Below, piece after piece: positions 16,979 through 35,671 of a DNA stretch of 64,000 nucleotides. The position numbers and the translations under genes are program-made. The notes under the pieces are model-generated. The model was not told the origin of the DNA and did not search any database. It was given only the letters and a program-made list of their open reading frames with translations. The stretch comes from Desulfobacula sp. (GTDB taxonomy: Bacteria; Desulfobacterota; Desulfobacteria; Desulfobacterales; Desulfobacteraceae), in NCBI GenBank assembly GCA_033852015.1, contig JAWSVH010000116.1, positions 2,356 through 66,355 of the forward strand, given 5' to 3'. The stretch's first letter is position 1; each line of letters starts with the position of its first letter.

Positions 16979-18043
16979 TCAGCCGACCTTATTAATTATC
17001 TGATCTGCAAGCTTAATAAGATTTTTCACCCGTAAATCCCAAGATTCAAATCTTTTGTCCTGGGTTTGGCCATGAAAAAATCTATAATAAATCTGTTGAA
17101 CAATAGCAGCCAGACGAAACACACCGAATGTATGATAGAAGCTGAAATTATCTATTTTACGGCCACAAAGCTGTTCATAGTGTCTGACCATCTCCTCTCG
17201 GGTCAAAGCACCTGGCACATTTGAAGGCACATCTCGCCAGGTGTTGAGCATATCAGGATCACCGGATTGGACCCAATATCCCAACGATGCACCAAAGTCC
17301 ATTAAGGGATCACCGATGGTCGCCATCTCCCAATCCAAAACACCAACAACTCTAAATGGATTTTGGGGATCTAAAATAACATTATCAAATTTAAAGTCAT
17401 TGTGAATGATCGCACCTGGGCCTGACTTTTTTGGCATATTGTCCAGCAGCCAGGTTATAACTTTTTTTGCGCCCGGCGCACCAGGGGTTAAAGCTTTCTG
17501 ATATCGATAAGCCCACCCTTCCACCTGGCGCTTAACATATCCTTCAGGTTTCCCAAAGTCTTCCAGACCAATTTCTTTATAATCAATGGCATGAAGGTCA
17601 TATTGCACTTTAAGAACGGTTTCAAACAATCGGGTAACATTTTGGGGAGACATATTCAGTTCTTTTGGAAAACTCTTCCGAATGATAATACCACTGATCC
17701 GCTCCATTAAATAAAACGGGCAACCTAAAATACTCTCGTCCTCTGTATATAATAATGGTCTAGGACAATAGGGATAAACATCCTTTAACGCACTGAGTAT
17801 CCGATATTCACGACCCATATCATGTGCAGATTTTGCTTTTGTACCATGCGGTGGGCATCGAAGTACCATTTGTTTTTCACCGATACAAACCAAATAGGTA
17901 AGATTAGAATGTCCACTGGGAAACTGATGAATTGTAACAGACCCCTCAAGCCCTTTAATTTCATCACGGATAAAAGACTCAATTTTTTTTAAAGGTAATT
18001 CTTCACCTTCCCGAATATTAGATGCCTTATCAATCAACGCCAT
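16979..18043 (-). CDS. Phosphotransferase-family kinase of the ACAD10/ACAD11 N-terminal (APH-like) type
   Basis: HQFPSGHSNLTYLV, catalytic IHNDFKFDNVILD and VLDWEMATIGDPLMDF motifs, plus GYVKRQVEGW, characteristic of the ACAD10/11-like and LvaA-like branch of APH kinases. AAGGAAA RBS. Confidence 0.88.
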   Translation of the reverse strand: MALIDKASNIREGEELPLKKIESFIRDEIKGLEGSVTIHQFPSGHSNLTYLVCIGEKQMVLRCPPHGTKAKSAHDMGREYRILSALKDVYPYCPRPLLYTEDESILGCPFYLMERISGIIIRKSFPKELNMSPQNVTRLFETVLKVQYDLHAIDYKEIGLEDFGKPEGYVKRQVEGWAYRYQKALTPGAPGAKKVITWLLDNMPKKSGPGAIIHNDFKFDNVILDPQNPFRVVGVLDWEMATIGDPLMDFGASLGYWVQSGDPDMLNTWRDVPSNVPGALTREEMVRHYEQLCGRKIDNFSFYHTFGVFRLAAIVQQIYYRFFHGQTQDKRFESWDLRVKNLIKLADQIINKVG

Positions 18044-18150
18044 GAAAATTTCCTTTTTTGCTTATTTGAGTTTATACCACCAACCCGATGTTAAATATCT
18101 TAAAATCTGTCGGTATCATGAATAAAATTTATATTAATAATATCATTCAT

Positions 18151-18185
18151 GTCAATAAAAAATAACGTACGTTCGTTTTTTCAAA
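18151..18185 (-). promoter_or_regulatory. Copy a of the conserved palindromic promoter/operator element (upstream of the kinase gene)
   Basis: Gene-direction sequence TTTGAAAAAACGAACGTACGTTATTTTTTATTGAC, then A completing TTGACA, then 16 nt, then TATAAA. Shares the 13-nt core AAAAAACGAACGT with three other sites. Confidence 0.55.
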
Positions 18186-18739
18186 TGGATCTTCTTCATT
18201 GACTTTAAAGTCATATCTTTTATGTCCCACCATATGAAACAAAATCAAAGAGACCGTTGATATTGGCAAATTTGGCAGGGGTACATTTACCGGCGTGAAA
18301 ACAAATAGCAAAACCTAAAAATCGTTTTTTTTCAATTCACAGACACCTCTTATTTAATTTAAATTCATTCAGAAAAGCTTCTATTTTAATAGATATAATG
18401 ATCTGTTTTTCCCTGTTCGATAAGAATGCTCATTTCATAAAATTATAAAATATTTATTGACATGCATATTGTCTCCAATTATAAACTATTTCAGTGATTC
18501 GGTTAATTAAATTAGGATTTGTCCAATAAATGATTACACATAATAATATACTATTCATTGGGATGTAACTTTAAATTATTAAATAATTAGGAAACTATTT
18601 TAATCAGACAATCTGATTAATTAAAATATACTTTTACACATTATTTTTTCCTGAAACGAGCGTGCATTCTGGTGATAAAAAATTCACCACATAGAATAAT
18701 CACTCTATAATTTTAACTTTTTTATTTTGGAGATGCACT

Positions 18740-19117
18740 ATGAAGTCAGCACAAATCAAACTATCCTTAAAAATCATTATCATGGCCCTGTTTTTAACTG
18801 CCACACTGGTCATTTCTGCAAATGCTTCAGATGCTGACATGACCGGGATATGGAACATGGATGTTACAACACCCAATGGAACCGGCACACCTGTCTTTAC
18901 CTTAAAACAAGAAGGACAGAAACTTTCCGGTACTTACAAAGGAAAATTTGGTGAAGCACCGGTTACAGGAATGGTAAAAGGAAATACATTTGAAATAAAT
19001 TATGATTCGTCTGGAGTACCCATCAAATACAGCGGTACTATTGACGGTAACAATGTCATGGGAGATGTGGATTTCTCATCATATGGAGGTGGCTCTTTTA
19101 CTGGGGAAAAAGAATAA
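18740..19117 (+). CDS. Small secreted hypothetical protein
   Basis: Signal peptide (IIIMALFLTATLVISANA-SD), GGAG RBS, beta-rich mature part, followed by a clean terminator. Confidence 0.65.
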   Translation: MKSAQIKLSLKIIIMALFLTATLVISANASDADMTGIWNMDVTTPNGTGTPVFTLKQEGQKLSGTYKGKFGEAPVTGMVKGNTFEINYDSSGVPIKYSGTIDGNNVMGDVDFSSYGGGSFTGEKE

Positions 19118-19144
19118 CATCACATATAAAACTATTTTTTAAAG

Positions 19145-19175
19145 GGCTGAAATCTAATAATTTCAGCCTTTTTTT
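19145..19175 (+). terminator. Rho-independent terminator
   Basis: GGCTGAAAT / ATTTCAGCC 9-bp stem, 6-nt loop, followed by 7 T. Confidence 0.75.
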
Positions 19176-19287: not shown

Positions 19288-20739
19288 ATGACAATACGAA
19301 CTTCTGATGAATATAAACAAAGTCTTCGTGACGATCGAAAAGTGTATATCCGTGGAGAAAAGATTGATGATATCACCCAAAATCCAATCCTTGGAGTTTG
19401 CACAGATACGGTTGCAGCGGCATATGACCTAACCAACTCAAAAGATCCTGAAATAAAAGATCTTTTTGTTGCTCCCCATCCAGAAACCGGTGAACCGGTA
19501 AACCGCTTTTTTATAACCCCTAAAAATCGAGAAGATCTGGCGCTTAGAACAAAAATGATTGGCCGATCCATGGAACTAATAGGGGATCTGCCCTTTGGTC
19601 GTGATATTGGAACAGATTGCCTTAATGCCGCCATTGTTGTCGCCGGCAAAATGGGCAATACTCAATACTTAAAAAATGCTAAAAATTTTCTTGAGCATTT
19701 ACGGAAAAACGATTTATTTACGTGTGGCGCAGTCACCTGCGTAAAGGGCGATCGGTCCAAGGAACCTGCTCAGCAAAAACACCCGGACTATTATGTCCAT
19801 GTCGTAGGCTCCAATGAAGAGGGCATTATTGTCAAAGGAGCCAAGGCCCATATCACGAATGCACCCATGGCAAATGAAATCATTGTAATTCCCACAAGAC
19901 AAATGCGTGAGAATGAAGCAGAGTACGCCGTTGCCTTTGCCATCCCGTCAAATACCAAAGGCATCAGCTTTATCTGCCGCAGCGGCCGGGGCGCATGGTC
20001 TGAAAATGAATTTCACCCGGACAACCCCCTAAGAGAATTAACCGAGGCACTAATTATATTTGATAATGTTCTCGTACCATGGGACAGGGTTTTTATGAAT
20101 GGTGAATGGAAATATTCGATGCTTTTAGCCTATACTTTCGCTACCTTCCATCGGTTTACAGCCATCAGCTATAAATTATCTCTGGTAGAAGTTATGGCAG
20201 GCTGTGCTGTTGCCATGTCTAAATACAATGGTTTGGAAAAAGTGGGCCATATCCGGGGGAAACTTGCCGATATTGCAGCCTATGTAGAAACACTTCGGGC
20301 ACTAACCAATGCTGCAGCACAAGCCCCGGTTATGTATGGAGACATTGCAGTACCCAACCCTCTAATTGCCAACATGGCCAAACTGCATTTTTCCAGCAAG
20401 TATCATAATTTTATTCAACTCATCCAGGATATTGGTGGTGGAATCATTGGTACCGCACCAGATAAAAAAGATTGGGACCACCCGGATATTCATGAATATC
20501 TGGACCATTACCTAGGAGGCAGTGCAGAATACAGCACCCTTGAGCGCATGAAGATGATCCATGAAACCATGCGTCAGGTCTGCTCCCAGGAATCGGCTTT
20601 TCATGAGCTGATCACCGTACATGCAGAAGGTTCCATGGAAGCACAGAAAATGATGATTTTAAATGAATCACCTCTTGACCGGTATGAGAAATTGGCAAAG
20701 AGAAAAGCTGGAATCATACCCTGGGATGAGAGAATATAA
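19288..20739 (+). CDS. 4-hydroxybutyryl-CoA dehydratase / HpaB-family protein, divergent paralog lacking the Fe-S cluster cysteines
   Basis: Full-length similarity to the two other paralogs and to the AbfD layout (..IVKGAKAHITNA.., ..YAVAFAIPS..). Aligned cluster ligands are replaced: PFGRD instead of CFQRC, and FHRFTAISY instead of YHRQSYxxC. AGGAGG RBS. Confidence 0.85.
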   Translation: MTIRTSDEYKQSLRDDRKVYIRGEKIDDITQNPILGVCTDTVAAAYDLTNSKDPEIKDLFVAPHPETGEPVNRFFITPKNREDLALRTKMIGRSMELIGDLPFGRDIGTDCLNAAIVVAGKMGNTQYLKNAKNFLEHLRKNDLFTCGAVTCVKGDRSKEPAQQKHPDYYVHVVGSNEEGIIVKGAKAHITNAPMANEIIVIPTRQMRENEAEYAVAFAIPSNTKGISFICRSGRGAWSENEFHPDNPLRELTEALIIFDNVLVPWDRVFMNGEWKYSMLLAYTFATFHRFTAISYKLSLVEVMAGCAVAMSKYNGLEKVGHIRGKLADIAAYVETLRALTNAAAQAPVMYGDIAVPNPLIANMAKLHFSSKYHNFIQLIQDIGGGIIGTAPDKKDWDHPDIHEYLDHYLGGSAEYSTLERMKMIHETMRQVCSQESAFHELITVHAEGSMEAQKMMILNESPLDRYEKLAKRKAGIIPWDERI

Positions 20740-20760
20740 ATATTCTAAAATTTGATTAAT

Positions 20761-20852: not shown

Positions 20853-22337
20853 CTATTTTTTCTTTTTCTTCTCGTCCAATTCCATACCAGCAATGTTCTT
20901 AACAATATCTTTACAACTATTAATATCATACTGACCATAGATAGCAATCTGCTCCATAATAGGAGATCCTCCACCGTGCATACTTCCGTAAGCGATTGCA
21001 CCGGTAATTCCGGAGTTAGTATAATCATGGAACAACATCCAGAATTTTTTCTGGTCTTCTACCGTCATCTCCTGGTTACGTGTAATATATTTTTCCAAAA
21101 GTTCTTTTGTTTCAGGATTTGCAAAGTCGCCTTCATGGGGAAAAGTTGATGGCATTCCACCCGCAATCTCACACAAGATCTGTTGTTCTTTAAATACAGA
21201 CTCACCTGTCAGGTAACGACCCACATTGGCATAGATTGAATCAGGGATCATAGAACCTGGTCCATAAGGCATCTTACCAACACCTGGAATATAAACCTTG
21301 GCTTCACCCTTTGCAGATGCAGTAAATCCTGCAGCATAACCAAGTTCTGCAATCGTAATTAATTCTGCGATCTTCTCTCGCACATGGGGTGCCTTATCGA
21401 TTCCGTTCACTTCTGCAGCAAGCGCTGAAAATCCAATCAACATATCACCAACAGCAGGTTTACATCCAGAATATGAGTGCCTGTGAAACAGTGCAAACAA
21501 CAGGGCACAAATACCACCATGCTGAGTCTCTCCACAAAGGAATACTCTTTCCCAGGGCACAAATACATCATCAAAAATTACGTAAGAATCAACAAAGCCA
21601 AAATCAAATCCACGGGGGGTATCGACTCTATTAGGCATGTTATGGGGAGAAAGCACCTGTTTAATCTGGGGATGATCCGCCTCAATGGCAAAAGCCACTG
21701 CATATTCAGACTCATCTTTTCCAAGGGCACGGGTCGGCAACACAAGAATCTCATCTGCAACAGAAGCAAATGTAATATGAACCTTACAACCTCGAACCAC
21801 TATGCCTTTATCATTTTTTTCTACCACTCGAAGATATTGATCAGGATCGGGTTGCTCTGCCGGACGTTTCATGCGAAGTCCTTTTACATCTGTCTGAGCA
21901 CAGGAACCCACCAGGTCCTCTTTCTGAAAATTTTCAAGCCATTTCAGAAAATTTTCATGATATTTGCTTTCACCTTTATTCATCTTATCGGCTTCAAAAG
22001 AAACTGAATTCAAAGCATTTAGCGCATCAACACCCATGCATCTTCCAATACACTGGCTTACTTTCTGGACATACATCCGGGTCATGTCCTGTTTTTTATG
22101 CAGATCATCTATGGTCTGGTGTACATGGTTGAATCTATTAATGGTATCGCCAGTGATATGACTGGTTGCAGTAGTAATATCCTGCACGTCTGAATCCTCG
22201 GCCAAATCAAAGCTGACGCCAATAACATTGGCAGCAGCAACGAGTGCTTTATGATCCCTGGGAACCTTTTCTCCATCAAGGTACAGATTACTATTCTTTG
22301 TTAACAAACTGTCTAAATATTGTTGTTTTGTACGCAT
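20853..22337 (-). CDS. 4-hydroxybutyryl-CoA dehydratase/vinylacetyl-CoA isomerase family protein (paralog 2, cluster ligands present)
   Basis: QCIGRCMGVDALNAL (C-x3-C) and FHRHSYSGCK (His + Cys) align with the AbfD [4Fe-4S] ligands. IVVRGCKVHIT and YAVAFAI blocks. AGGAGAAAG RBS. Confidence 0.88.
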   Translation of the reverse strand: MRTKQQYLDSLLTKNSNLYLDGEKVPRDHKALVAAANVIGVSFDLAEDSDVQDITTATSHITGDTINRFNHVHQTIDDLHKKQDMTRMYVQKVSQCIGRCMGVDALNALNSVSFEADKMNKGESKYHENFLKWLENFQKEDLVGSCAQTDVKGLRMKRPAEQPDPDQYLRVVEKNDKGIVVRGCKVHITFASVADEILVLPTRALGKDESEYAVAFAIEADHPQIKQVLSPHNMPNRVDTPRGFDFGFVDSYVIFDDVFVPWERVFLCGETQHGGICALLFALFHRHSYSGCKPAVGDMLIGFSALAAEVNGIDKAPHVREKIAELITIAELGYAAGFTASAKGEAKVYIPGVGKMPYGPGSMIPDSIYANVGRYLTGESVFKEQQILCEIAGGMPSTFPHEGDFANPETKELLEKYITRNQEMTVEDQKKFWMLFHDYTNSGITGAIAYGSMHGGGSPIMEQIAIYGQYDINSCKDIVKNIAGMELDEKKKKK

Positions 22338-22439: not shown

Positions 22440-23321
22440 TTATATTAAGGCTTGTCCTGTATCAGGATCATACCTGTAAAAACCCTCATTCGTTTTTCGT
22501 CCCAACTTTCCTTTGGCTACCATATCCTCGACCAACGTGCTCTCAGAAAAAAGATACGTCTCGTTCATAGATTTCATGGATCTATTAATTCGTCCCACTG
22601 TATCCAATCCTGCATTATCGACGATTTCAAAGGGTCCTTTATTCCATCCATATCCCAATCGCATACCCGCATCAATATCTTCAGGACTTGCAATACCCTT
22701 TGCAACCAGTTCCTGACATTCTCTGAAGGCGGCAGAAAAAACCCGATTCATGACAAAGCCTGGAATATCTTTTTGAACACCCACCGGATGTTTGCCTATG
22801 TTTTTGATAAATTCAATTCCAGAAGCATATACATCATCCGAGGTTTGCTCTCCTTTAACGACCTCTACAAGACCCATAAATGGCACTGGTCCAAAAAAGT
22901 GCAGTCCTACAAATCGCTCCGGTTTAGTTAAAAAAGAAGCCAGTTGACTCACCGGAATAGAAGAGGTGTTTGTGGCAATAATGGTCTCTTTCCCAACCTG
23001 TGGTTCCAGCTCTTCAAGCAAGCTTTTTTTCAAATCCAAATCTTCAAACACCGCTTCTACAACCAAAAACAAATTCGCACCTGTTTTAGCATCCACTTTT
23101 ATACCTTCAACAAGCTCAAGACGTTCGAGCACAACATCGACCGACTCCTTTATTTTACCTTTTTGATTCAACTTCTCTAAAGACCAGATGATATTTTTCT
23201 TTGCTCGTTCAAGCATTGTTTTTTCAACATCACTTAAAATTACTTGATAACCACATTGGATACATACCTGGGCAATACCCGAACCCATAAACCCAGCCCC
23301 AATTACCATTATTTTTTTCAT
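22440..23321 (-). CDS. 3-hydroxyacyl-CoA (3-hydroxybutyryl-CoA) dehydrogenase
   Basis: N-terminal Rossmann motif IMVIGAGFMGSGIAQV, then ..HFFGPVPFMGLVEVV.. and C-terminal ..GRKTNEGFYRY. Start overlaps the TetR stop by 4 nt. Confidence 0.9.
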   Translation of the reverse strand: MKKIMVIGAGFMGSGIAQVCIQCGYQVILSDVEKTMLERAKKNIIWSLEKLNQKGKIKESVDVVLERLELVEGIKVDAKTGANLFLVVEAVFEDLDLKKSLLEELEPQVGKETIIATNTSSIPVSQLASFLTKPERFVGLHFFGPVPFMGLVEVVKGEQTSDDVYASGIEFIKNIGKHPVGVQKDIPGFVMNRVFSAAFRECQELVAKGIASPEDIDAGMRLGYGWNKGPFEIVDNAGLDTVGRINRSMKSMNETYLFSESTLVEDMVAKGKLGRKTNEGFYRYDPDTGQALI

Positions 23322-24034
23322 AAAGCCTCTCCCTGGGGTATAAGTTCACTATTTTCAACACCCAAATAATTTTCCATGAATTCAATAACAAAATCAGCAT
23401 ATTCATCGACAGAGACACCCCTGGATCTAAATTTTGATCGTTTTAAATACCAATTGGCAAACAAGGCTTTTACGACTTCCGCTGTAAGCGTGATATTTCG
23501 TTCAACGAACAACTCCTGGTCCTGTCCTTCTTCTAATATAGATTCTAAAAGTGTTTCTGTGGCAAGGTCCCCTTCGATGGCTTTCTTTCTTTCTTTTAAA
23601 TTTAAATTCTTAGCTTCCATAAAAGAGAAATAAAACCAAGGCTGCATGAGTTCACTCGAAAAAACATGGGCTTGAACCAAAGCTCTTAACTGATCCACAG
23701 GATTATCCTGTTCATTAATCTCATGGTTAATAATACGACCAACCACCTCTCTGAACTGATATTGCAGCATACTCAAAAGGTCGTCTTTACTGCTAAAATA
23801 CGCATAAAGTGCCCCAAGACTGATGCCGGTTTCCTGTCGCAAATCCCGCATACTCATTACTTGAAAGCCTTTTTTATTACTTATTTTCAAGGCCGCTTTA
23901 AAAATTATGTCCAGATTCTTCATGACAGTTTTTTCTTTTTTAATTCGAATACTACCGCGATTTTCTGCAATAGTTTCTAAAAAAATCTCCTGCTCTACAA
24001 CCACCATCATTTTTTTAAATTGCTTGTAATCCAT
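23318..24034 (-). CDS. TetR/AcrR-family transcriptional regulator (TetR-1)
   Basis: HTH region KGFQVMSMRDLRQETGISLGALYAYFSSKDDLL. Clear paralog of the 28294..28974 regulator. First gene of a tetR-hbd-abfD unit. Confidence 0.88.
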   Translation of the reverse strand: MDYKQFKKMMVVVEQEIFLETIAENRGSIRIKKEKTVMKNLDIIFKAALKISNKKGFQVMSMRDLRQETGISLGALYAYFSSKDDLLSMLQYQFREVVGRIINHEINEQDNPVDQLRALVQAHVFSSELMQPWFYFSFMEAKNLNLKERKKAIEGDLATETLLESILEEGQDQELFVERNITLTAEVVKALFANWYLKRSKFRSRGVSVDEYADFVIEFMENYLGVENSELIPQGEAL

Positions 24035-24122: not shown

Positions 24123-24162
24123 GTCAACAAAAAAAATAACGTACGTTCGTTTTTTATTGATC
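24123..24162 (-). promoter_or_regulatory. Copy b of the conserved palindromic promoter/operator element (upstream of TetR-1)
   Basis: Gene-direction GATCAATAAAAAACGAACGTACGTTATTTTTTTTGTTGAC, then A (TTGACA), 17 nt, TAATTT. Confidence 0.55.
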
Positions 24163-24296: not shown

Positions 24297-25076
24297 TTAT
24301 TTACCAGTAAATTTGGCTTTACGTTTTTGAAGAAATGCTGCCATTCCTTCCTTTTGATCTGCAGTTCCAAACAGCATACCGAACAAATCCTGTTCGATAC
24401 AGATGCCATCTTTCAAGGAGACATTCAACCCCTTTCGCATGGCAGTCTTAACTGCACGAAGTGCAATCGGTGGTCTTGCCATAAGTTGATTGGCAAATTT
24501 AACGACGGCATCTTTAAGCTCTTCCTGAGGAACAACGCGATTCAAAATCCCTACTTGATGAGCTCTCTCAGCTTTCATCATGCCACCCAGCATAAGCATT
24601 TCTGCAGCAATGGAATAGTTGATCAAACGTGGTAGTCTCTGGGTTCCGCCGCCACCAGGAATAATCCCCAGTGTGATTTCAGGCAAACCGACAACCACGT
24701 TATCTGCAGCAATTCTAAAATCACAGCAAAGAGCGGTCTCAAGACCGCCACCAAGGGCATATCCAGACATCATAGCGATGGTTGGCTTTCCAAGATCAGC
24801 AAGACGCTCGGTAACCGGTATGATTTCATCTGAAAACTTATATGCATCTGCAATATCACCAGTGGACATCTGTTCAATGTCTGCACCTGCCGCAAATACT
24901 TTGTCACCACCGGTAATAACCAGCACACGGACCTCATCGTCACCCGCAACTTCATCTACCACTCTTCCAATATCACCAAATACATCTGAGTTCAATGCAT
25001 TCAGTTTAGTCGGACGGTTAAGCTGGGCCCATGCAATGCCATCTTCTTTAGTGTAAATTATAGTTTTAAGATTCAT
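24297..25076 (-). CDS. Enoyl-CoA hydratase (crotonase family)
   Basis: ..VLVITGGDKVFAAGADI.., ..GYALGGGLETALCCDFRIA.. and the C-terminal ..EGMAAFLQKRKAKFTGK are typical crotonase motifs. AGGAGA RBS. Confidence 0.92.
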   Translation of the reverse strand: MNLKTIIYTKEDGIAWAQLNRPTKLNALNSDVFGDIGRVVDEVAGDDEVRVLVITGGDKVFAAGADIEQMSTGDIADAYKFSDEIIPVTERLADLGKPTIAMMSGYALGGGLETALCCDFRIAADNVVVGLPEITLGIIPGGGGTQRLPRLINYSIAAEMLMLGGMMKAERAHQVGILNRVVPQEELKDAVVKFANQLMARPPIALRAVKTAMRKGLNVSLKDGICIEQDLFGMLFGTADQKEGMAAFLQKRKAKFTGK

Positions 25077-25097
25077 TAAAAATCTCCTTTTAGAATC

Positions 25098-25970
25098 TTA
25101 TTTTTTGCTATAGTCGTACCAGCCTTTTCCTGTTTTCTGACCATATTCGCCGTTTGTGTATTTTTCAACGACACAAGGGCTTGGACAATCAATTGGATCA
25201 CCACTTTCTCTGAAAGCTTCCATTCCCATAATGTAAGCAAGATCGATACCTGTCAGATCCATGAGAGTGAAGGGACCCATTGGGTGTCCTGCGCCAAATA
25301 CACATGCCTTATCAATATCTTCAACAGATGCAACACCCATATCCAATATCCATTGTGCTTCTTTTCCAATCACTTTGAAGATCCGGTTCAACAAGAAACC
25401 TGGCACTTCTTTTTTAACGTGAACGGGTACTTTGCCCAGTTTTTTACAAAGATCCATGGAGATCTGTGCAGTTTCATCAGAAACATGCGGTCCCTGAACA
25501 ACTTCAACAAGCTTCATAACCAGTGCAGGATTGAAAAAATGAAGGTTACATACTTTATCTGGACGATTGGTAACATCCGCAATTTTTGAAGACACGATAA
25601 AAGAGCTGTTGGTAGCAAGAATAGCATGTTTAGGAGCAAATTTATCCAGATCAGCAAACAGCTGACGTTTAATATGCATAACTTCAATGGCAGCTTCAAT
25701 AACGTAATCTGCTTCTTTTACACACTCTTCCAGATTATTGGTAAAGCTAATACGGCCACGGACTGCCTTAGCTTCGTCTTCAGTCATTTTGCCTTTAGCA
25801 ACACGACCGGGAAGATATTTATCAACAAATGCATCAGCTTTGTCCAGCATGTCCTGACTGATGTCAGAACATTTGACATTATAACCGATAATTGCACAGT
25901 GAAGGCTGATCTGATGACCCATGTTGCCAGCACCGATGATAGAAATATTTTTGATATCATCAATATTCAT
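25098..25970 (-). CDS. 3-hydroxyacyl-CoA dehydrogenase (second paralog)
   Basis: ISIIGAGNMGHQISL Rossmann motif, HFFNPALVMKLVEVV, C-terminal GQKTGKGWYDY. AAGGAGAA RBS. Confidence 0.92.
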   Translation of the reverse strand: MNIDDIKNISIIGAGNMGHQISLHCAIIGYNVKCSDISQDMLDKADAFVDKYLPGRVAKGKMTEDEAKAVRGRISFTNNLEECVKEADYVIEAAIEVMHIKRQLFADLDKFAPKHAILATNSSFIVSSKIADVTNRPDKVCNLHFFNPALVMKLVEVVQGPHVSDETAQISMDLCKKLGKVPVHVKKEVPGFLLNRIFKVIGKEAQWILDMGVASVEDIDKACVFGAGHPMGPFTLMDLTGIDLAYIMGMEAFRESGDPIDCPSPCVVEKYTNGEYGQKTGKGWYDYSKK

Positions 25971-25996
25971 TTTTCTTTTCTCCTTAATTATTAAAT

Positions 25997-27202
25997 TTAA
26001 CGCTGAAGGTTCTCAATAACAGTGGCAACACCCAGTCCACCACCACAGCAGGAACCGAACACGCCATAACGACCGCCTTTACGGATCATATCACGCATGG
26101 TGAACATGCAAAGCCTTGCTCCGGAAGCACCATTGGGATGACCAAATGAAATCGCTCCACCCATTGGATTCCATTTTTCCATATCCACTTTTTCGCCAGT
26201 GATTTTTTCCATTTCTTTAATAACAGCAAGGTTCTGTACAGCGAATGCTTCGTTACATTCCATCGTATCCATATCAGACAATTTAAGTCCAGCACGTTCA
26301 ATGGCCTGGGGCATTGCAACGGCAGGTCCGATACCCATAATTTTGGGATCACATCCACAATCTGCACCGGACAACCATTTAGCCATTGGAGTATATCCCA
26401 GCTCTTTGGCTTTGTCCGCACTCATCATCAAAACAAATGCAGCACCATCATTCTGACCAGAAGCATTACCAGCAGTTACAGTACCGTCTTTTTTAAATAC
26501 CGGTCGAAGTTTCGCAAGACCTTCAAGAGTAGTCTGGGCACGAGGATGCTCATCCACATCAAATACAACTTCAGGAGTTCTTTTGGTAGCAGGGGTAACC
26601 ACAGGAATAATTTCATCATCAAAGTATCCAGCATCTTGAGCTGCTTTTGCTCTCATCTGGCTGTTATATGCAAACTGATCCTGATCTTCTCTGGAAATAT
26701 CATATTGTACCTGCAGATTTTCAGCAGTAAAACCCATTCCGATCTGTTCAGCAGGAACCGGAGAGTTCTGTTGCATAATAGGCATTGGGGGAATCAATTT
26801 GTGAGCTGGAGTTGATGAAGGAAACTTAAACGCCATCTGGCTGTAAGATTCCATACCACCGGCAATAACAATATCCGCCTGGTTAGCAAGAATCTTCCAA
26901 GCTGCATGGTTGATCGCATCAATCGCGCTACCACACTGCATTTCAACATAAGATGCAGATGTAGTCTGTGGCAAATCTGTACATAACATAGCATGACGTG
27001 CAGGATTCAGCGCAGAAGAACACCCCGTTGCAGAACCCAAAAACACACTATCGACATGTGCTTTTTCATGAATTTTTGTTTTGTCCAAAAGACCCTGAAT
27101 ACCGATACCGCCAAGTTTTGATGCAAAAAGATCCTTCAAAGAACCGCCCATACGTCCAAACGGTGTTCTAGCACCATCAATAAATACTACTTCTCTACTC
27201 AT
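25997..27202 (-). CDS. Acetyl-CoA C-acetyltransferase / thiolase
   Basis: EVVFIDGARTPFGR N-terminus, ..NEAFAVQ.., ..GGAISFGHPNGASGARL.. and CCGGGLGVA C-terminal thiolase signatures. AAGGAGAA RBS. Confidence 0.93.
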   Translation of the reverse strand: MSREVVFIDGARTPFGRMGGSLKDLFASKLGGIGIQGLLDKTKIHEKAHVDSVFLGSATGCSSALNPARHAMLCTDLPQTTSASYVEMQCGSAIDAINHAAWKILANQADIVIAGGMESYSQMAFKFPSSTPAHKLIPPMPIMQQNSPVPAEQIGMGFTAENLQVQYDISREDQDQFAYNSQMRAKAAQDAGYFDDEIIPVVTPATKRTPEVVFDVDEHPRAQTTLEGLAKLRPVFKKDGTVTAGNASGQNDGAAFVLMMSADKAKELGYTPMAKWLSGADCGCDPKIMGIGPAVAMPQAIERAGLKLSDMDTMECNEAFAVQNLAVIKEMEKITGEKVDMEKWNPMGGAISFGHPNGASGARLCMFTMRDMIRKGGRYGVFGSCCGGGLGVATVIENLQR

Positions 27203-27410: not shown

Positions 27411-27449
27411 GTCAATTATAAAATAACGTACGTTCGTTTTTTAATTGAC
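27411..27449 (-). promoter_or_regulatory. Copy c of the conserved palindromic promoter/operator element (upstream of the thiolase-hbd-crotonase operon)
   Basis: Gene-direction GTCAATTAAAAAACGAACGTACGTTATTTTATAATTGAC, then A (TTGACA), 17 nt, TAATTT. GTCAAT/ATTGAC outer arms. Confidence 0.55.
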
Positions 27450-27484: not shown

Positions 27485-28246
27485 TTATGCCAACGCACCG
27501 CCATCACAGGTCAAACAAATCCCAGTCGTAAAGCTTGAAGCATCCGAAGCCAAATAAAGAGCGGCTCCTGACATTTCATCCGGAACGGCATGTCGGCCTA
27601 AAGGAATACTTTTATAGACTTCGTTTACCAGGTCATCATTTTCCATTAACGCTGCAGAAAACTTTGTTTTTGTAAGTCCCGGCAAAAGTGCATTCACACG
27701 AATATTTTTTAATCCCAACTCTTTTGCAAGACCCTTTGTCATCGAAATCATTGCTGCTTTAGTAATCGAGTAGACGCCCTGCATGGGAGCCGGACGTTTA
27801 CCATTAATGGAACTGACATTGATCACAGATGCTTTTCCTGATGCTGCGAGCAATTCAATGGACCGTTGGATCAGAAAAAATGGCCCTTTAAGATTTACAG
27901 AAAATGTTTTATCCCATCGACCTTCATCAATTCCATCCATATTGCCAAAATAGGGATTTGTTGCAGCATTGTTCACGATAATATCAAGCTTACCAAATTT
28001 CTCTTTAACATAAGAAACAAGACCGTCAATCTGTTCAATGTCGCCCACATTACAGGCAAAGGCATCTGCACTTCCACCCGCCTTTTTAATATCTGCCACC
28101 ACACCTTCTAAACCATCAATTTTTCTACTAACCAGAATACAGTGCGCTCCATTTTGTGCATATGTATGGGCAATGGCCTCACCAATTCCACGGCTTGCAC
28201 CGGTTATAACGGCTACTCTTCCTTTTAAAGAAAACATATTTTCCAT
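27485..28246 (-). CDS. SDR-family oxidoreductase (3-oxoacyl reductase-like)
   Basis: VAVITGASRGIGEAIA (TGxxxGxG), NNAA, and the catalytic YSITKAA (YxxxK). Confidence 0.9.
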   Translation of the reverse strand: MENMFSLKGRVAVITGASRGIGEAIAHTYAQNGAHCILVSRKIDGLEGVVADIKKAGGSADAFACNVGDIEQIDGLVSYVKEKFGKLDIIVNNAATNPYFGNMDGIDEGRWDKTFSVNLKGPFFLIQRSIELLAASGKASVINVSSINGKRPAPMQGVYSITKAAMISMTKGLAKELGLKNIRVNALLPGLTKTKFSAALMENDDLVNEVYKSIPLGRHAVPDEMSGAALYLASDASSFTTGICLTCDGGALA

Positions 28247-28293: not shown

Positions 28294-28974
28294 TCATACG
28301 AGATAAAACGATTTTATAAACGTCAGAAGAAACTGTGCGTATTGATCAACATCGATTTTCCTTCTTGAATACTTTCCCCGTTTTAAATACCAGTCCTGGA
28401 GCATGGATTTTATAACACTGGCACCCAGAGTATGGTCACCTGGTTTAAACACTCCTTTTTCATATCCTTCAACCAGGATATCTGCAATAATTTTTTCCGT
28501 ATACAACTCGCTTTGGACAGATCTTTCCATTTCTTCGGGGTTTAAATTTTTAGCTTCCATATACGAAAAATAGAACCACTGGTGCATTTTCTCAGTCAAA
28601 AAAAGATGAACTTCTATAACTATTTCTAACTTCTCAAGAGGCGTCTTCTCTTTTATTAAAAATTCTTCAAACACCTGCTTAATGATTTTACGACCCTGAC
28701 CTAAATAAACCGTTAAAATCTCATCTTTGCTTGAAAAATAAGAATAAAGAGCCCCCATACTCAGGCCGGAGCCACTGCTCAGGTCCCGCATAGTCATAGC
28801 CTGAAAGCCTTTTGAAATACCAATTTTTAAAGTAGTATCAAAAATCTTTTCTAAATTTTTTATAACCACTGCCTCTTTTTTAATCTGGATTTTTTCTTTG
28901 TGCTCCAAAAAAGCAGCCCTACAGATATCAATTTTTGAATCAGGAATAATTTTTACAAATTCACTATATTTCAT
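28294..28974 (-). CDS. TetR/AcrR-family transcriptional regulator (TetR-2, paralog of TetR-1)
   Basis: KGFQAMTMRDLSSGSGLSMGALYSYFSSKDEIL. Start moved to the internal ATG at 28974 (MKYSEF..) because it aligns with the MDYKQF.. start of TetR-1. Confidence 0.85.
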   Translation of the reverse strand: MKYSEFVKIIPDSKIDICRAAFLEHKEKIQIKKEAVVIKNLEKIFDTTLKIGISKGFQAMTMRDLSSGSGLSMGALYSYFSSKDEILTVYLGQGRKIIKQVFEEFLIKEKTPLEKLEIVIEVHLFLTEKMHQWFYFSYMEAKNLNPEEMERSVQSELYTEKIIADILVEGYEKGVFKPGDHTLGASVIKSMLQDWYLKRGKYSRRKIDVDQYAQFLLTFIKSFYLV

Positions 28975-29091: not shown

Positions 29092-29802
29092 TCATCTATA
29101 TGTCAAAATTGTTTTATCACCGGTTAATTCCAAGTGAGTTATGTCATTAAATCCAGACAAACTGACCTGCCCTAAACCATATCTTAACCGTGTAACAGAT
29201 GCATTAACCACCTGCCAGGATGTTTCAATGGCTTTAAAATCACTTAAGTCCATTGCCAATTGAACTGCTGCACAGATTGGCCCTCCCGAAGAAAAAACAG
29301 CAATTTTTTTTGATGGTCCTTCTCGGTCCATTATCGCCTTTAAACCACTGACAACCTGCCGTTTAAAATCGCTCCAAATCACATCACCATCTGAATCATA
29401 TTCTCCGGACACCCATCGACGAACAACTTTGGAAAATACTTTTTGGAACGCAGTATTATTTAAGGGATCTTTGTTAAGTGTCTCTAAAAGATCAGGAGTC
29501 TGTTTTAGCATTCCACTTATCTGTGCCTCCCATACTGCATCTGAATCATACTCATTAAAACGTTTATCAACCACAGGTTCAGGAACAAACAATCCTTTGG
29601 CCTGATATGCATCTATCATACCTTTGGCTGTTTTTTGCTGACGATCCATCTGTCCAAAATAAATTGCATCAAATTTTATATCAAGCCCCGCAAGGTGTTG
29701 ACCCAGGATCGCAGCCTGTTTCACCCCTGTATCGGAAAGCCTGTCATAATTTTTCGCCCCAAAGGATGCCTGACCATGCCGAATAAGATAAATTTCACTC
29801 AT
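29092..29802 (-). CDS. Histidine phosphatase (phosphoglycerate mutase) superfamily protein
   Basis: IYLIRHGQASFG catalytic RHG motif. Start set to ATG 29802 (MSEIYLIRHGQ), 1 nt after the upstream stop. Confidence 0.85.
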   Translation of the reverse strand: MSEIYLIRHGQASFGAKNYDRLSDTGVKQAAILGQHLAGLDIKFDAIYFGQMDRQQKTAKGMIDAYQAKGLFVPEPVVDKRFNEYDSDAVWEAQISGMLKQTPDLLETLNKDPLNNTAFQKVFSKVVRRWVSGEYDSDGDVIWSDFKRQVVSGLKAIMDREGPSKKIAVFSSGGPICAAVQLAMDLSDFKAIETSWQVVNASVTRLRYGLGQVSLSGFNDITHLELTGDKTILTYR

Positions 29803-30169: not shown

Positions 30170-30207
30170 GTCAAGAAAAAACGAACGTTTGTTCTATTTT
30201 TCTTGAC
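30170..30207 (+). promoter_or_regulatory. Copy d of the conserved palindromic promoter/operator element (divergent ABM operon / etfBA region)
   Basis: GTCAAGAAAAAACGAACGTTTGTTCTATTTTTCTTGAC with perfect 11-bp outer arms (GTCAAGAAAAA/TTTTTCTTGAC). Each arm reads TTGACA toward its flanking gene. On the plus side it is followed by 17 nt and TAAATA. Confidence 0.55.
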
Positions 30208-30342
30208 ACTTGTTAGAAAGGGCTTTAAATAAAGATTATTATCAAGTTTTTAGATTCTATTGATCATTTTATTAATCATGATAAACTAAGCCATTAAAGT
30301 GTTTAAAATTACATGTTTAAAAAAAACTTCGGGATACAAAAA

Positions 30343-31119
30343 ATGAAAATTCTGGTTTGTATAAAACAGGTCATGGAATCTGGTTCACCAATTAAGATTG
30401 ACCCCTCCGGAAAATGGCTGCAATATTCACAGTCCACTCGATTTGAAATAAACAAATACGATGAATATGCCATTGAAGAAGCCATCCAAATAAAAGAAAA
30501 TTTTAAAGATACACAGATTGATGTCATTACGGTAGGCCCCTCCCATGCATCTGATGTTTTACGCAGAGCCCTTGGAATGGGTGCAGATGAAGCGATCCAT
30601 ATCTTAGATGAAGCAAAGGGATATCGCCCTCCAGCGATTACAGCTGAATGGATTACAGCTTTTGTAAAAAAAGAGACCTATGACCTGATCTTTACGGGAA
30701 TCATGTCCGATGATGAAATGAATGCCCAGACCGGCGTGATGATTAGCCAGATTCTTGACTGGCCATGCGCTACGGCTGTCATCAAAGAAGAGATTTCAAA
30801 TGACCGAAAGAAAATGCGTATCGAACGAGAGATAGAGGGCGGTGCAAAAGACATATTTGACATCACACTGCCATGTGTGTTGACCATCCAAACCGGTATC
30901 AACACCCCCAGATACCCTTCTCTATCAAAAGTTTTGAGAGCAAAGAAAAAAACGCTTCAAATAATCCCGGCGAAAACACTAAAAACAGCGGAACAAATAC
31001 CCAGCCTTGAAACCATTCAATTCCCTGAAAAAACAACCCGGGGTATTGTATTAAAAGGAAGTAGCCAAGATAAAGCCAAAGCGCTTTTGAACATATTGGC
31101 TTCAAAAACACTGGTATAA
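30343..31119 (+). CDS. etfB: Electron transfer flavoprotein, beta subunit
   Basis: MKILVCIKQV... start (ATG 30343), ..NKYDEYAIEEA.., ..DLIFTG..SDD.. are typical EtfB blocks. Confidence 0.9.
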   Translation: MKILVCIKQVMESGSPIKIDPSGKWLQYSQSTRFEINKYDEYAIEEAIQIKENFKDTQIDVITVGPSHASDVLRRALGMGADEAIHILDEAKGYRPPAITAEWITAFVKKETYDLIFTGIMSDDEMNAQTGVMISQILDWPCATAVIKEEISNDRKKMRIEREIEGGAKDIFDITLPCVLTIQTGINTPRYPSLSKVLRAKKKTLQIIPAKTLKTAEQIPSLETIQFPEKTTRGIVLKGSSQDKAKALLNILASKTLV

Positions 31120-31133: not shown

Positions 31134-32138
31134 ATGACAAAAAAAATCACAATTATAGCAGACCATGACGGAAAAAATATAAAACCCATCACCTGGGAAT
31201 TATTTGCCTTTGCAAAAAAAATACAAGCGCATGAAAAAGCAGATATCTATTTTTTCATTATTGGAGAAAACACCAAAGAACTTGCCCAGGATATAAGCAT
31301 TCATTCCGGATGCAAAACATATGCGATGGATGTCTTGGGCACCAATAATTATCATGGCCAAATCTATAAAAAAATACTGATACCGTTTTTAACAAAAAAC
31401 CCCGCTGACTATATTCTGGTTCCACACACCACATCGGGAATGGATTATGCGCCCGCCCTTTCCATTGCCCTTAAAGGTTCCTGCATCACTGCAGTAGAAG
31501 GGATACATAATAAAGATAATGTGCTACATTTTGTCCGTGCCATGTTTGGCAGAAAAATCCAGGCAGATCTTTCAAACAAAAATCTTGGTGCATCCTCCCC
31601 CCAGGTCCTTACACTTCAAGCGGGTTCGTTTAAACCATTTAAGCTTGACCAAAATGACATTAAAAATATCAATATCATCCATGAAGCATTCGACTGTCTT
31701 GAAAAAGAGATGATATATAAAGGATGTCAGCCTTCGCCTTCCAAAGGATCAAATCTTGCCAAGGCTGAGGTGATTGTTTCAGGGGGCAGAGGAATTGAAG
31801 AGGAAGAAAATTATAAATACATTGAAATGTTAGCAGACATCTTTCCCAGGTCTGCCACAGGCGCATCCCGGCCAATCTGTGACTATGGATGGGCCAAATA
31901 CAGTCAGCAAGTCGGGGCCACAGGAACAATAATCTCCCCAAAACTCTACATTGCCTGCGGTATTTCCGGTGCAACCCAACATCTTGAAGGAATAAGAGAT
32001 TCACAATTTATTGTTGCCATAAACTCAGACCCAGATGCACCCATCTTTCAAGTCGCTGATATCTGTATTATTGAAGACCTAACCGATTTCATACCCATTA
32101 TAGTCGAGACCGCAAAAAAAAAGCGCCCGACAAATTAA
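31134..32138 (+). CDS. etfA: Electron transfer flavoprotein, alpha subunit
   Basis: C-terminal FAD-binding block VSGGRGI...GASRP..D.GW....QVG.TG..I.PKLYIACGISGATQHL.G......IVAIN.D..APIF..AD. Confidence 0.92.
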   Translation: MTKKITIIADHDGKNIKPITWELFAFAKKIQAHEKADIYFFIIGENTKELAQDISIHSGCKTYAMDVLGTNNYHGQIYKKILIPFLTKNPADYILVPHTTSGMDYAPALSIALKGSCITAVEGIHNKDNVLHFVRAMFGRKIQADLSNKNLGASSPQVLTLQAGSFKPFKLDQNDIKNINIIHEAFDCLEKEMIYKGCQPSPSKGSNLAKAEVIVSGGRGIEEEENYKYIEMLADIFPRSATGASRPICDYGWAKYSQQVGATGTIISPKLYIACGISGATQHLEGIRDSQFIVAINSDPDAPIFQVADICIIEDLTDFIPIIVETAKKKRPTN

Positions 32139-32150: not shown

Positions 32151-32197
32151 TATATCTTTCAAACCGTTAATTTAAAATTATCGGCTGATATGGCTGA

Positions 32198-34012: not shown

Positions 34013-34222
34013 TTTTTTTACATTCTCCTTAAATTTCTTTTTGTTTTATCAAATTCTATAAATCAAAATTTAACCTAAATATATACACATAAATTTTAAA
34101 TATCCTAACAGGTTAAATTGTTTTTATCATTTTTTCAAACTCTTTCTAATGATTTCAATCTAAAAAACCCCACCCATAAAATGAATGAGCATCAAGGCCT
34201 TCACCGCATGCTTTTCTGTACT

Positions 34223-35671
34223 TTAGTCGTCGGATTTAATGCCTGCTAATTTTTTAGCATATTTCTGTTTTTTGGCCATATCCACCAAACGGGAAATCAT
34301 AATTCGTTGAGCCTGGGGTGAACCGGCTCCATGCATGGACTCTGTCAGATATCCCACTGCAGCAGTACCAAAACAGATATTTTCAATTAAACGCAAAATC
34401 CGCCTTCTATCTTCGGTCGGTGTTTTTTCGTTCCCTTTAAAATATTTATCCAGCCACTTACCCACTTCTTTGGAATTAAAATCATCTTCAGAAGGAAGGG
34501 TCACCATCAAACCACCGGCAATATCCTGGGCAAGGCGAGCAATCTCATAAGGAAATCGAGTGACATTTTGTTTACAGACATTTGCCAGCAATGTATTTAC
34601 GAGAAATGTTCCACTGGGTTGTGCAGCACCCTTACAGGCACAGGATACAGAACCGCAATAAAGCGTCTCATTCAAATGGTTCATCTCAATAATTTTATCT
34701 TTAATATGGGAGGCTTTTTGCACACCATTATATTCAGCAATCGTTTGAGTAGCACCGATCATAACATCACCCACACCAGTTTTACATGCATAGCTCTGGC
34801 GATGATAAGAAGCAAATTGCTCAACCAGGGCTCCTGCAAATTCGTATTCTTTATACATGAATACGCGATCCCAGGGGACAAAGACATCATCAAAAACAAC
34901 CAGGGCTTCATGACCGCCATACGTTGCATTACCACAGTCGATACTGCCTTTCTCAAGTTTTCTGGTATCACAGGACTGACGACCCATAATATAGGTAATG
35001 CCTTTGGCATCACTGGGAAGTGCAAAAGAGATAGCATAGTCTTTATCTTCTTCACGCATGGAAATGGTCGGCATAATAATAATCTCATGGGAATTCACCG
35101 CGCCGGTCTGATGTGCCTTTGCGCCTCTTACAACAATCCCATCTTCTTTCTCTTCAACCACGTGCATGAACATATCCGGATCCGGCTGTTTGTGAGGAGG
35201 CAGTCCCCTGTCTCCTTTGGGATCTGTCATGGCACCATCACAAACCAAATCGCCTTCCTGGACAAATTCCAAGTATTCCAAGAAATTCTTATTATATTTA
35301 GTGCCATGTTTTTGATCAATATCATAGGTCGTAATGGACAAAGCATTTAGTGAGTCCATCCCCACGCAGCGTTGGAAGCAGCTACCGGTCATTCCACCCA
35401 TAAATCTTCCCATATCTGTCTTTTTTATCAGATCTTCTGTGCTCTGGTGGATGTGGCAAAACCGGTTGATTTTTTTCCCGGTAATATGGGAAGTCGCCGT
35501 CATCAGATCTTCATGTTCAGGATCATTCGCCAGTTCATAGGTCATGGCGACAGCATTCATTGAAGGCCTGATAATAGGATCATCCACAACATTTTCAATT
35601 CGTTTGCCAAACTGGTATACAATAAGATTTAATTTTCTTAGACTATCTTCATATTCTTTTGCTGTCATCAT
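34223..35671 (-). CDS. abfD: 4-hydroxybutyryl-CoA dehydratase / vinylacetyl-CoA delta-isomerase (closest to canonical AbfD)
   Basis: Long near-identical blocks to Clostridium aminobutyricum AbfD as I recall it: SCFQRCVGMD (Cys99/Cys103 equivalents), YHRQSYACK (His292/Cys299 equivalents), DGAMTDPKGDRGL, IVVRGAKAHQTG, ESMHGAGSPQAQRIMI. GGAGAGAG RBS. Confidence 0.92.
   Translation of the reverse strand: MMTAKEYEDSLRKLNLIVYQFGKRIENVVDDPIIRPSMNAVAMTYELANDPEHEDLMTATSHITGKKINRFCHIHQSTEDLIKKTDMGRFMGGMTGSCFQRCVGMDSLNALSITTYDIDQKHGTKYNKNFLEYLEFVQEGDLVCDGAMTDPKGDRGLPPHKQPDPDMFMHVVEEKEDGIVVRGAKAHQTGAVNSHEIIIMPTISMREEDKDYAISFALPSDAKGITYIMGRQSCDTRKLEKGSIDCGNATYGGHEALVVFDDVFVPWDRVFMYKEYEFAGALVEQFASYHRQSYACKTGVGDVMIGATQTIAEYNGVQKASHIKDKIIEMNHLNETLYCGSVSCACKGAAQPSGTFLVNTLLANVCKQNVTRFPYEIARLAQDIAGGLMVTLPSEDDFNSKEVGKWLDKYFKGNEKTPTEDRRRILRLIENICFGTAAVGYLTESMHGAGSPQAQRIMISRLVDMAKKQKYAKKLAGIKSDD

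Follow-up and report, generated by a model that had tools for sequence, protein, structure and literature searches.

An ACAD10/ACAD11-type kinase, an AbfD-family protein and beta-oxidation genes behind a shared putative TetR operator in Desulfobacula sp.

Substituents at C4 of an acyl-CoA can be removed in two ways: by phosphorylation and flavin-assisted elimination of the phosphate (ACAD10/11, LvaAC), or by ketyl-radical dehydration (AbfD). A 64-kb stretch of DNA from Desulfobacula sp. (assembly GCA_033852015.1, contig JAWSVH010000116.1, positions 2,356 to 66,355), called the window in what follows, carries genes related to both. One cluster in it encodes a kinase of the ACAD10/ACAD11 type and three proteins of the AbfD family (AbfD1, AbfD2 and AbfD3), along with a short-chain dehydrogenase/reductase (SDR), a long acyl-CoA dehydrogenase (ACAD), a histidine-phosphatase family protein (HisPhos), an electron-transfer flavoprotein (Etf) with its EtfB and EtfA subunits, three TetR regulators, and the 3-hydroxyacyl-CoA dehydrogenases (Hbd1, Hbd2), crotonase (Crt) and thiolase (Thl) of beta-oxidation. 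A preliminary description of the window had proposed that 4-hydroxyacyl-CoA is broken down there by both routes in one regulon. Does the locus encode two routes, and are they under one control?

The proposal stands in part. Close relatives swap the kinase, an ACAD11-type gene and AbfD3 around a shared core, but the kinase route lacks its phosphate eliminase in the window. We read the locus as a composite TetR-controlled cluster that would channel 4-oxo- and 4-hydroxyacyl-CoA into beta-oxidation, and we put the probability that it works as set out below at about 0.55. The coordinates of all features are given in Table 1.

A widespread module and its putative operator

The genome scan covered 80 loci whose kinases share 50-62% identity with that of the window, and the flanks were surveyed by tblastn. 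A module recurs among them: Etf genes, HisPhos, a gene of ~1.2 kb, TetR, the kinase, SDR and an Hbd-like gene. HisPhos accompanies the kinase in 53 loci, SDR in 51, TetR in 36, EtfB in 27 and EtfA in 23, and the Etf genes are divergent from the kinase module in most loci that have them. The SDR matches in those 51 loci include an orthologue of the window SDR (~49-65% identity), which is the usual downstream neighbour of the kinase. No AbfD-family gene was found by this tblastn census in any of the 80 loci.

The ~1.2-kb gene is of the ACAD11 type. Its product in locus L009 (8037-9281) matches human/mouse ACAD11 at 1.5e-85 (2wbi) and has both the RLGPGRIHHCMR helix and an Asp-containing DG(A/P)DEVH motif; the residues that distinguish ACAD10/11/LvaC are a catalytic Asp replacing the ACAD Glu and a helix with R626, H634 and R637 (PMC12440821). 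In 43 of the 80 loci such a gene (~400 aa) directly precedes the kinase, sharing its strand and no more than 4 kb away, and these are all the non-Pseudomonas-type loci with >1 kb of upstream sequence, L023 excepted. The 32 Pseudomonas-type loci (within L037-L080) have the order HisPhos-kinase-SDR, and no ACAD11-type gene was found there within 10 kb of the kinase. Pseudomonas, Stutzerimonas and related Gammaproteobacteria are a second setting in which the kinase has no adjoining eliminase. To judge from gene order, the kinase-SDR-ACAD11 module is a dedicated TetR-regulated operon kept across phyla, which argues for a specific substrate. Beyond the Hbd-like gene in L009 come genes for a CCG/4Fe-4S protein, an FAD-linked oxidase and a second CCG protein (12864-16520), which look like a heterodisulfide-reductase-like or lactate/glycolate-oxidase-like electron module.

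A perfect 14-bp palindrome, AACGAACGTTCGTT, was looked for in 93 related loci and found, with at most two mismatches, in 32 of them; shuffled sequences gave 3.75. It lies nearly always in the spacer between Etf and HisPhos, directly upstream of the HisPhos-ACAD11-type-TetR-kinase operon, and does so in several phyla; it is a conserved, undescribed putative TetR operator. In the window, an identical 20-mer, AATAACGTACGTTCGTTTTT, occurs three times (0.00 matches expected by chance), and each copy adjoins a minus-strand TTGACA box (18150-18155 for the kinase copy). A related site, AACGAACGTTTGTT, is found in the divergent region between EtfB and the gene for an ABM-domain protein, the position that the palindrome has in most related loci. 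Four units thus have the putative operator in front of them: the kinase; TetR1-Hbd1-AbfD3; Thl-Hbd2-Crt; and ABM-HisPhos-TetR2-SDR with EtfBA. No copy was found upstream of AbfD1, the long ACAD or AbfD2. A shared operator for both enzyme types, as had been proposed, is therefore present at the kinase and AbfD3 units but not at the canonical AbfD1, the ACAD or AbfD2.

TetR1 (43% identity) and TetR2 (48%, with the alignment beginning at 28974) are both orthologues of the module TetR of L009; TetR3, only 23% identical, is no orthologue of it. Because the palindrome sits in the Etf/HisPhos spacer and TetR1 and TetR2 are orthologous to the module TetR, the operator would originally have controlled the kinase/ACAD11 module and, in the window lineage, have come to stand before the beta-oxidation and AbfD3 units as well. 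The kinase's own copy argues that its co-regulation with those units has been maintained. TetR3 is the probable regulator of AbfD1 and the ACAD, and TetR3-AbfD1-ACAD appears to be a separate unit, kept so in L088, one of the close relatives described next.

Five close loci were compared (L081, L087, L088, L092 and L093), with proteins 59-89% identical to those of the window. L087 matches the gene order of the window exactly, at 68-88% identity, save for one added gene: it has Etf / ABM-HisPhos-X-TetR2-SDR-Thl-Hbd2-Crt-TetR1-Hbd1-AbfD3, where X is an ACAD11-type gene (2382-3581), and no kinase within 2.8 kb after AbfD3. L081 (assembly GCA_033851995.1) has ABM-TetR2-SDR-Thl-Hbd2-Crt-TetR1-AbfD3, then the kinase, and neither HisPhos nor an ACAD11-type gene. 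Thl-Hbd2-Crt keeps its order in both loci (83-89% identity), and the same operator variant as in the window stands before Thl and TetR1 in both; a copy upstream of the L081 kinase was looked for and none was found. L093 has AbfD3, a gap of 192 bp and then the kinase. Co-transcription of these two was considered and rejected, since a strong terminator lies in between. L092 shows the classical order, HisPhos-ACAD11-type-Crt-TetR1-kinase-Hbd1, without AbfD3. L088 has TetR3-AbfD1-ACAD-AbfD3-SDR-Thl-Hbd2-Crt, with neither kinase nor ACAD11-type gene. The same two genes are absent from four distant metagenome loci (L095-L098), all of which have an AbfD3-like gene beside a module-type SDR (57-64% identity) and three of which have a module-type Hbd beside it as well (56-71%). 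This mixing of parts around one SDR/beta-oxidation core fits kinase plus eliminase, on the one hand, and AbfD3, on the other, as alternative solutions for one step.

Kinase, acyl-CoA dehydrogenase and AbfD-family proteins

The PDB matches of the kinase are led by 9o56 (9e-98), its closest solved relative, with 3dxp at 3e-51 and the kinase domain of mouse ACAD11 at 2e-49; macrolide and viomycin kinases reach only 1.5e-4, and NCBIfam gives only sub-threshold matches, to thiamine kinase and LxmK. The catalytic loop IHNDFKFDN (D216/N221) aligns with HYDYKLNN of 9o56 and GDFKLDN of ACAD11, and LDWE with FDWE of 9o56, so that the DWE motif is kept. The roles of these motifs (catalytic loop, metal-binding Asn, DWE) are those described in PMC13596139. 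R172, within KRQV, aligns with R176 of ACAD11, one of its CoA-contacting Arg residues (PMC12440821), and R78-E79 aligns with the ACAD11 Arg beside the alpha-C Glu, where the R86 numbering is matched only inexactly. By all sequence criteria examined, the kinase belongs to the ACAD10/ACAD11 kinase family. Since its scores and conserved motifs favour ACAD10/11, it does not group with aminoglycoside or choline kinases, and its earlier assignment to the ACAD10/11 type rather than to the antibiotic kinases is borne out.

Among the lineages in which the kinase is linked to AbfD3, nonsynonymous divergence (dN) of the kinase is 0.17-0.25; synonymous divergence (dS) is saturated in most pairs, which leaves only dN and two ratios (0.085 and 0.104) usable. 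These values indicate that the kinase is intact and under purifying selection in those lineages. The window kinase is neither fused to nor encoded with an ACAD of the ACAD10/11/LvaC type, in all frames searched.

The substrate of the kinase family is now disputed between 4-hydroxyacyl-CoAs and alkylglycerols. Stand-alone homologues from Burkholderia phosphorylate 4-hydroxyhexanoyl-CoA, and the separate kinase and ACAD of Burkholderia can substitute for the corresponding domains of ACAD10 (PMC11342911). According to a 2026 preprint, prokaryotic homologues phosphorylate 1-O-alkylglycerols, stimulated by acetyl-CoA; one of its alkylglycerol kinases is the C. thermarum protein that was crystallised in the same work (PMC13596139), and we take this crystal structure to be PDB 9o56.

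As partner of the kinase, the preliminary description had named the long ACAD (604 aa). Over its full length this protein matches mycobacterial FadE5 and Pseudomonas FadE1-FadE2 structures (6ks9, 8png, 8pns, 6ijc) at ~1e-104 to 4e-131, with 6ijc at 4e-131, 8png at 4e-113 and 6ks9 at 6e-104, and no ACAD11 structure (2wbi, 8v3v) figures in its 60 best PDB hits. It carries the canonical catalytic Glu in IYEGT and a C-terminal PF12806 domain. It lacks the GPGRIH motif, the R/H/R helix (RLGPGRIHHCMR) and the ACAD11 Asp. By sequence it is an ordinary dehydrogenase of the FadE5/FadE1 type and not a phosphate eliminase. As such it cannot stand in for LvaC, and we rejected it both as an LvaC analogue and as the ACAD10/11-type partner.

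Nor is an ACAD11-type gene found elsewhere in the window: tblastn in six frames of the 64 kb gave no match even at E<=1. A remnant between HisPhos and TetR2, a gap of ~117 bp, or near the kinase was rejected on the same search. The window therefore does not encode the kinase route in full. The ABM-HisPhos-TetR2-SDR operon has the appearance of the usual module minus the ACAD11-type gene and the kinase; our guess is that an ACAD11-type eliminase lies elsewhere in the genome.

The three AbfD-family proteins were checked at twelve residues, numbered after Clostridium aminobutyricum AbfD (PDB 1u8v). In this enzyme C99, C103, H292 and C299 are the [4Fe-4S] ligands, and E257 and E455 are reported to be important for dehydratase activity (bioRxiv 10.1101/2020.02.05.935528). 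The preliminary description had counted three radical dehydratases. Three AbfD-family genes are indeed present, but the residues divide them into one canonical, one divergent and one cluster-less member. AbfD1, 65% identical to 1u8v (9e-211), keeps 12/12 checked residues, with all four of T190, E257, Y296 and E455 among them, and would be the sole canonical 4-hydroxybutyryl-CoA dehydratase of the three.

AbfD3 is 37% identical to 1u8v (1e-87). It keeps the ligands C99, C103, H292 and C299, plus Y296, K300 and T190, and has the substitutions E257D, E455G, Q101G and A460G. These are family-wide, with G or A at position 455, and seven relatives, among them proteins of D. baarsii, D. tiedjei and Smithella, share the residue pattern. 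We regard AbfD3 as a separate AbfD subfamily lacking E455, whose reaction may differ. Its linkage to the kinase is not a general rule: no kinase was found in 80 metagenome loci of AbfD3 relatives (<=64% identity), nor near the AbfD3-family genes of D. baarsii, D. tiedjei and others, and the linkage is confined to the close relatives of the window. In L083/L084 (16569-18212), L124, L125 and L132, AbfD3-like paralogues come two or three at a time, in tandem or close together, and some of these genomes add an old-yellow-enzyme-type reductase, SDR and alpha/beta hydrolases. Such multiplicity suggests a broader substrate range of the subfamily. The literature yielded nothing relevant on characterised AbfD paralogues of sulfate reducers or on anaerobic levulinate/4-hydroxyvalerate pathways.

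AbfD2 has C99P, C103D, C299Y, Y296A and E455I, and with the first four of these it could not bind the cluster; by its residues it does not count as a dehydratase of the AbfD kind. C99P, C103D and C299Y are common to six relatives. The AbfD2 family, annotated as hypothetical by NCBI, is 72-84% conserved and monocistronic among unrelated housekeeping genes (e.g. L089-L091) in Desulfobacterota and Syntrophales. In the window AbfD2 follows a terminator (19141-19172) and has its own promoter region; its gene is not found in the syntenic loci L081 and L093. We judge it to be an unrelated insertion outside the regulon. As a candidate for the missing phosphate eliminase it was rejected, being of a monocistronic family, absent from L081 and L093, and without an operator.

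Three smaller members of the cluster remain to be described. The SDR (PRK07035 type) has a presumed LvaD-like role, by analogy. HisPhos keeps RHG and has FSSGG in place of the branch-1 SHGG, where the family shows FSSGG or (F)TSGG, and the second catalytic His is replaced in 55/55 of the HisPhos orthologues examined (L001-L092). In ACAD10, the HAD domain is reported to slow the kinase as a brake and not to serve as a phosphatase (PMC11342911). The ABM gene, which the preliminary description had missed, has its stop one base before the probable HisPhos ATG; orthologues of it head this operon in L081 and L087 as well, whereas in loci further removed they do not.

Proposed working and alternative readings

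For the pathway we infer the substrates of the kinase, the AbfD proteins and the SDR, the direction of flux and all enzyme activities from sequence. The backbone of the cluster would derive by rearrangement from a 'split ACAD10/11' module that is widespread in bacteria and usually has Etf facing HisPhos, ACAD11-type ACAD, TetR, kinase, SDR and Hbd behind AACGAACGTTCGTT. In the window lineage this module would have been fused with Thl-Hbd-Crt and TetR1-Hbd1-AbfD3, and the operator would have spread to four promoters. The ACAD11-type eliminase would have been lost from between HisPhos and TetR2, and the kinase, under an operator copy of its own, would now stand by itself downstream of AbfD3.

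In the enzymatic scheme, the SDR would interconvert 4-oxo- and 4-hydroxyacyl-CoA, as LvaD does, and AbfD3, in cis, would turn 4-hydroxyacyl-CoA into 2-enoyl-CoA. With the C4 substrate, the dehydration step would fall to the separately regulated AbfD1. Crt, Hbd1/2 and Thl would complete beta-oxidation, with the FadE5-type ACAD and EtfBA handling saturated acyl-CoAs. The kinase would phosphorylate 4-hydroxyacyl-CoAs, and its product would need an ACAD11-type enzyme encoded outside the window.

Known systems resemble this scheme in parts. The lva operon of P. putida encodes the LvaA kinase with LvaB, the ACAD-family eliminase LvaC, the reductase LvaD and the ligase LvaE, and takes 4-oxoacyl-CoA through 4-hydroxyacyl-CoA to enoyl- or 3-hydroxyacyl-CoA and then beta-oxidation (PMC9399607). 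The likeness, drawn from the pathway description, lies in a kinase with the APH fold and from the same broad family, an adjoining SDR in most relatives and the same pathway logic. Unlike lva, with its kinase, eliminase, reductase and ligase together, the window has the kinase and SDR only; an LvaC-type gene and a ligase are missing, TetR repressors and a palindromic operator would take the place of the activator LvaR, and the host is an anaerobe. ACAD10/11 and the Burkholderia pseudomallei kinase and ACAD (3dxp, 9o56, 2wbi, 8v3v) are alike in the kinase domain (2e-49 to 9e-98, motifs kept), and a phosphatase-fold protein accompanies the kinase as in ACAD10, HisPhos here and a HAD domain there. 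The mammalian proteins differ in that the bacterial genes are split rather than fused, and the window has a co-regulated AbfD paralogue as neighbour and no ACAD11-type partner. C. aminobutyricum AbfD finds its counterpart in AbfD1 and, for the ligands, Y296, K300 and T190, in AbfD3; against this stand the low identity and missing E455 of AbfD3 and the lack of a cluster in AbfD2, and genes for an AbfT-type CoA transferase and 4-hydroxybutyrate dehydrogenase are not adjacent in the window.

Several findings weigh against the composite-cluster reading. The C. thermarum protein, presumably 9o56, the closest solved relative of the kinase, is reported as an alkylglycerol kinase (PMC13596139). The putative operator does not overlap the best -35 box but stands upstream of it. 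AbfD3, with E257D and without E455, may catalyse a reaction other than dehydration, and its distant family members stand without a nearby kinase, sometimes with TetR alone.

The cluster could be a general island for beta-oxidation or fermentation of short- or medium-chain acyl-CoA (e.g. butyrate or crotonate), with AbfD paralogues acting mainly as vinylacetyl-CoA/3-enoyl-CoA isomerases and with kinase, HisPhos and SDR as damage control for side products. AbfD enzymes are also isomerases by the PDB names of 1u8v and 6vjr, and the missing E455 of AbfD3 would suit that role; the lost second catalytic His of HisPhos, the braking HAD domain of ACAD10 (PMC11342911) and the lack of a hydroxy-acid activating enzyme in the window would suit it too. 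We hold it to be unlikely, however, for AbfD1 retains every dehydratase residue, and the kinase-SDR-ACAD11 module is apparently an operon of its own, dedicated and TetR-regulated, across phyla.

A second possibility concerns the kinase only: it would act on 1-O-alkylglycerols or another lipid alcohol, in ether-lipid salvage, and its location would be an evolutionary leftover. This would agree with the acetyl-CoA-stimulated alkylglycerol kinase activity that PMC13596139 reports, the presumed 9o56 protein included, with the 32 Pseudomonas-type loci that have no ACAD11-type gene within 10 kb and with the eliminase missing from the window. It would leave unexplained why 43 loci combine kinase, ACAD11-type ACAD, TetR, SDR and Hbd in one operon, why the window kinase has an operator in common with the thiolase, crotonase and Hbd units, and why the CoA-contacting Arg residues of ACAD11 are conserved (PMC12440821). 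The Burkholderia stand-alone homologues act on 4-hydroxyhexanoyl-CoA (PMC11342911), and the Pfam survey of the window found no ether-lipid gene nearby. We consider this quite unlikely.

Both chemistries might also be merged in one hybrid pathway, in which the kinase makes 4-phosphoacyl-CoA and AbfD3, with its Fe-S cluster and FAD, expels the phosphate in place of the ACAD11-type eliminase. The slot that the ACAD11-type gene has in other genomes, before the kinase and on its strand, is taken by AbfD3 in L081, L093 and the window, and the window kinase has gained its own copy of the operator of the AbfD3 unit. Purifying selection appears to keep the kinase in loci that show no ACAD11-type gene, over ~10 kb of L081 flanks, the window and the available L093 sequence, and the family-wide Gly at Q101, E455 and A460 would enlarge the AbfD3 pocket. 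Such a pathway is nevertheless a long shot. L087 pairs AbfD3 with an ACAD11-type gene and has no kinase at the locus, a kinase is missing from the 10 kb around most genes of the AbfD3 family, and the terminator in L093 parts the two genes; use of a phosphate ester by an AbfD-family enzyme is without precedent, and the eliminase could be encoded elsewhere. Scarcely credible is the earlier version in which kinase and 604-aa ACAD are an LvaA/LvaC-like pair and both routes are complete behind one operator: the two do share a 19-kb cluster with EtfBA, but the ACAD fails the sequence tests (FadE5/FadE1 type, IYEGT Glu, no R/H/R helix), has no operator, travels in L088 with TetR3-AbfD1 and not with a kinase, and the ACAD10/11 reaction requires no electron acceptor (PMC11342911).

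On the composite-cluster reading, the locus would be a case of modular pathway evolution rather than of new biochemistry, and as it stands it is adequately explained by that. The hybrid pathway, if true, would mean a new AbfD-family reaction that merges both known gamma-elimination chemistries. Seemingly undescribed are a widespread form of the split ACAD10/11 operon that anaerobes carry, complete with conserved palindromic operator, an AbfD3 subfamily devoid of E455, and the mixing of parts in one lineage, including a kinase beside AbfD3 with no eliminase nearby. In these anaerobes the genes of both chemistries are swapped around one SDR/beta-oxidation core under one conserved putative TetR operator. 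The split operon and its putative operator offer a handle on the real substrate of these kinases, and kinase genomes without a nearby eliminase are natural test cases for whether the eliminase is dispensable or replaced.

Gene inventory of the window

The Pfam screen covered all window open reading frames (ORFs) of at least 150 aa. It puts every gene named in the preliminary description at the same coordinates and in the same family, and agrees with it on the full Hbd, crotonase and thiolase set. It agrees also on the lack of an activating enzyme: no AMP-binding ligase or CoA-transferase domain was found among these ORFs. Other window genes encode SelB, NrfD, a hybrid-cluster protein, a 2-oxoacid:ferredoxin oxidoreductase and radical-SAM enzymes, and point to an anaerobic, Desulfobacterota-like host.

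Table 1. Genes and putative operator sites of the cluster, in window coordinates
Feature	Coordinates	Strand	Basis or remark
Kinase, ACAD10/ACAD11-type (LvaA-like), stand-alone, 354 aa	16979-18043	-	Pfam APH 2e-47
Putative operator copy 1, AATAACGTACGTTCGTTTTT	18161-18180		118 bp upstream of kinase start
AbfD2, cluster-less HpaB/AbfD-family protein	19288-20739	+	
AbfD3, divergent AbfD paralogue	20853-22337	-	Final gene of TetR1-Hbd1-AbfD3 unit
Hbd1, 3-hydroxyacyl-CoA dehydrogenase	22440-23321	-	Pfam 3HCDH_N and 3HCDH; 4-bp overlap with TetR1 stop
TetR1	23318-24034	-	Pfam TetR_N/TetR_C_24
Putative operator copy 2, 20-mer identical to copy 1	24135-24154		101 bp upstream of TetR1
Crt	24297-25076	-	Pfam; beta-oxidation unit 24297-27202
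Hbd2	25098-25970	-	Pfam; beta-oxidation unit 24297-27202
Thl	25997-27202	-	Pfam; beta-oxidation unit 24297-27202
Putative operator copy 3, 20-mer identical to copy 1	27422-27441		Upstream of Thl
SDR, PRK07035 type	27485-28246	-	NCBIfam NF005446, 369 bits
TetR2	28294-28974	-	Pfam; ORF extends to 29031, probable start 28974
HisPhos, histidine-phosphatase family	29092-29802	-	Pfam His_Phos_1 2e-17; ORF to 29862, probable ATG 29802
ABM-domain protein, 99 aa	29804-30103	-	Pfam ABM 8e-18; heads ABM-HisPhos-TetR2-SDR unit
Putative operator copy 4, AACGAACGTTTGTT	30180-30193		Divergent ABM/EtfB promoter region
EtfB	30313-31119	+	Pfam ETF
EtfA	31134-32138	+	Pfam ETF_alpha
Long ACAD, FadE5/FadE1-type, 604 aa	32198-34012	-	PDB matches, IYEGT motif
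AbfD1, predicted canonical 4-hydroxybutyryl-CoA dehydratase/vinylacetyl-CoA isomerase	34223-35671	-	PDB 1u8v 9e-211
TetR3, unlike module TetR	35873-36496	-	Pfam

On its outer side the kinase adjoins a Q/N/S-rich ORF of 131 aa (16575-16970, +) without a significant Pfam match, and beyond this lies the two-subunit 2-oxoacid:ferredoxin oxidoreductase (13826-16250, +). Both keep their position on the kinase side in L081 and L093 (49-81% identity). A small protein with a signal peptide is encoded at 18740-19117 (+), followed by the strong terminator at 19141-19172, and a 40%-identical copy of this small secreted protein sits between AbfD3 and the kinase in L081.

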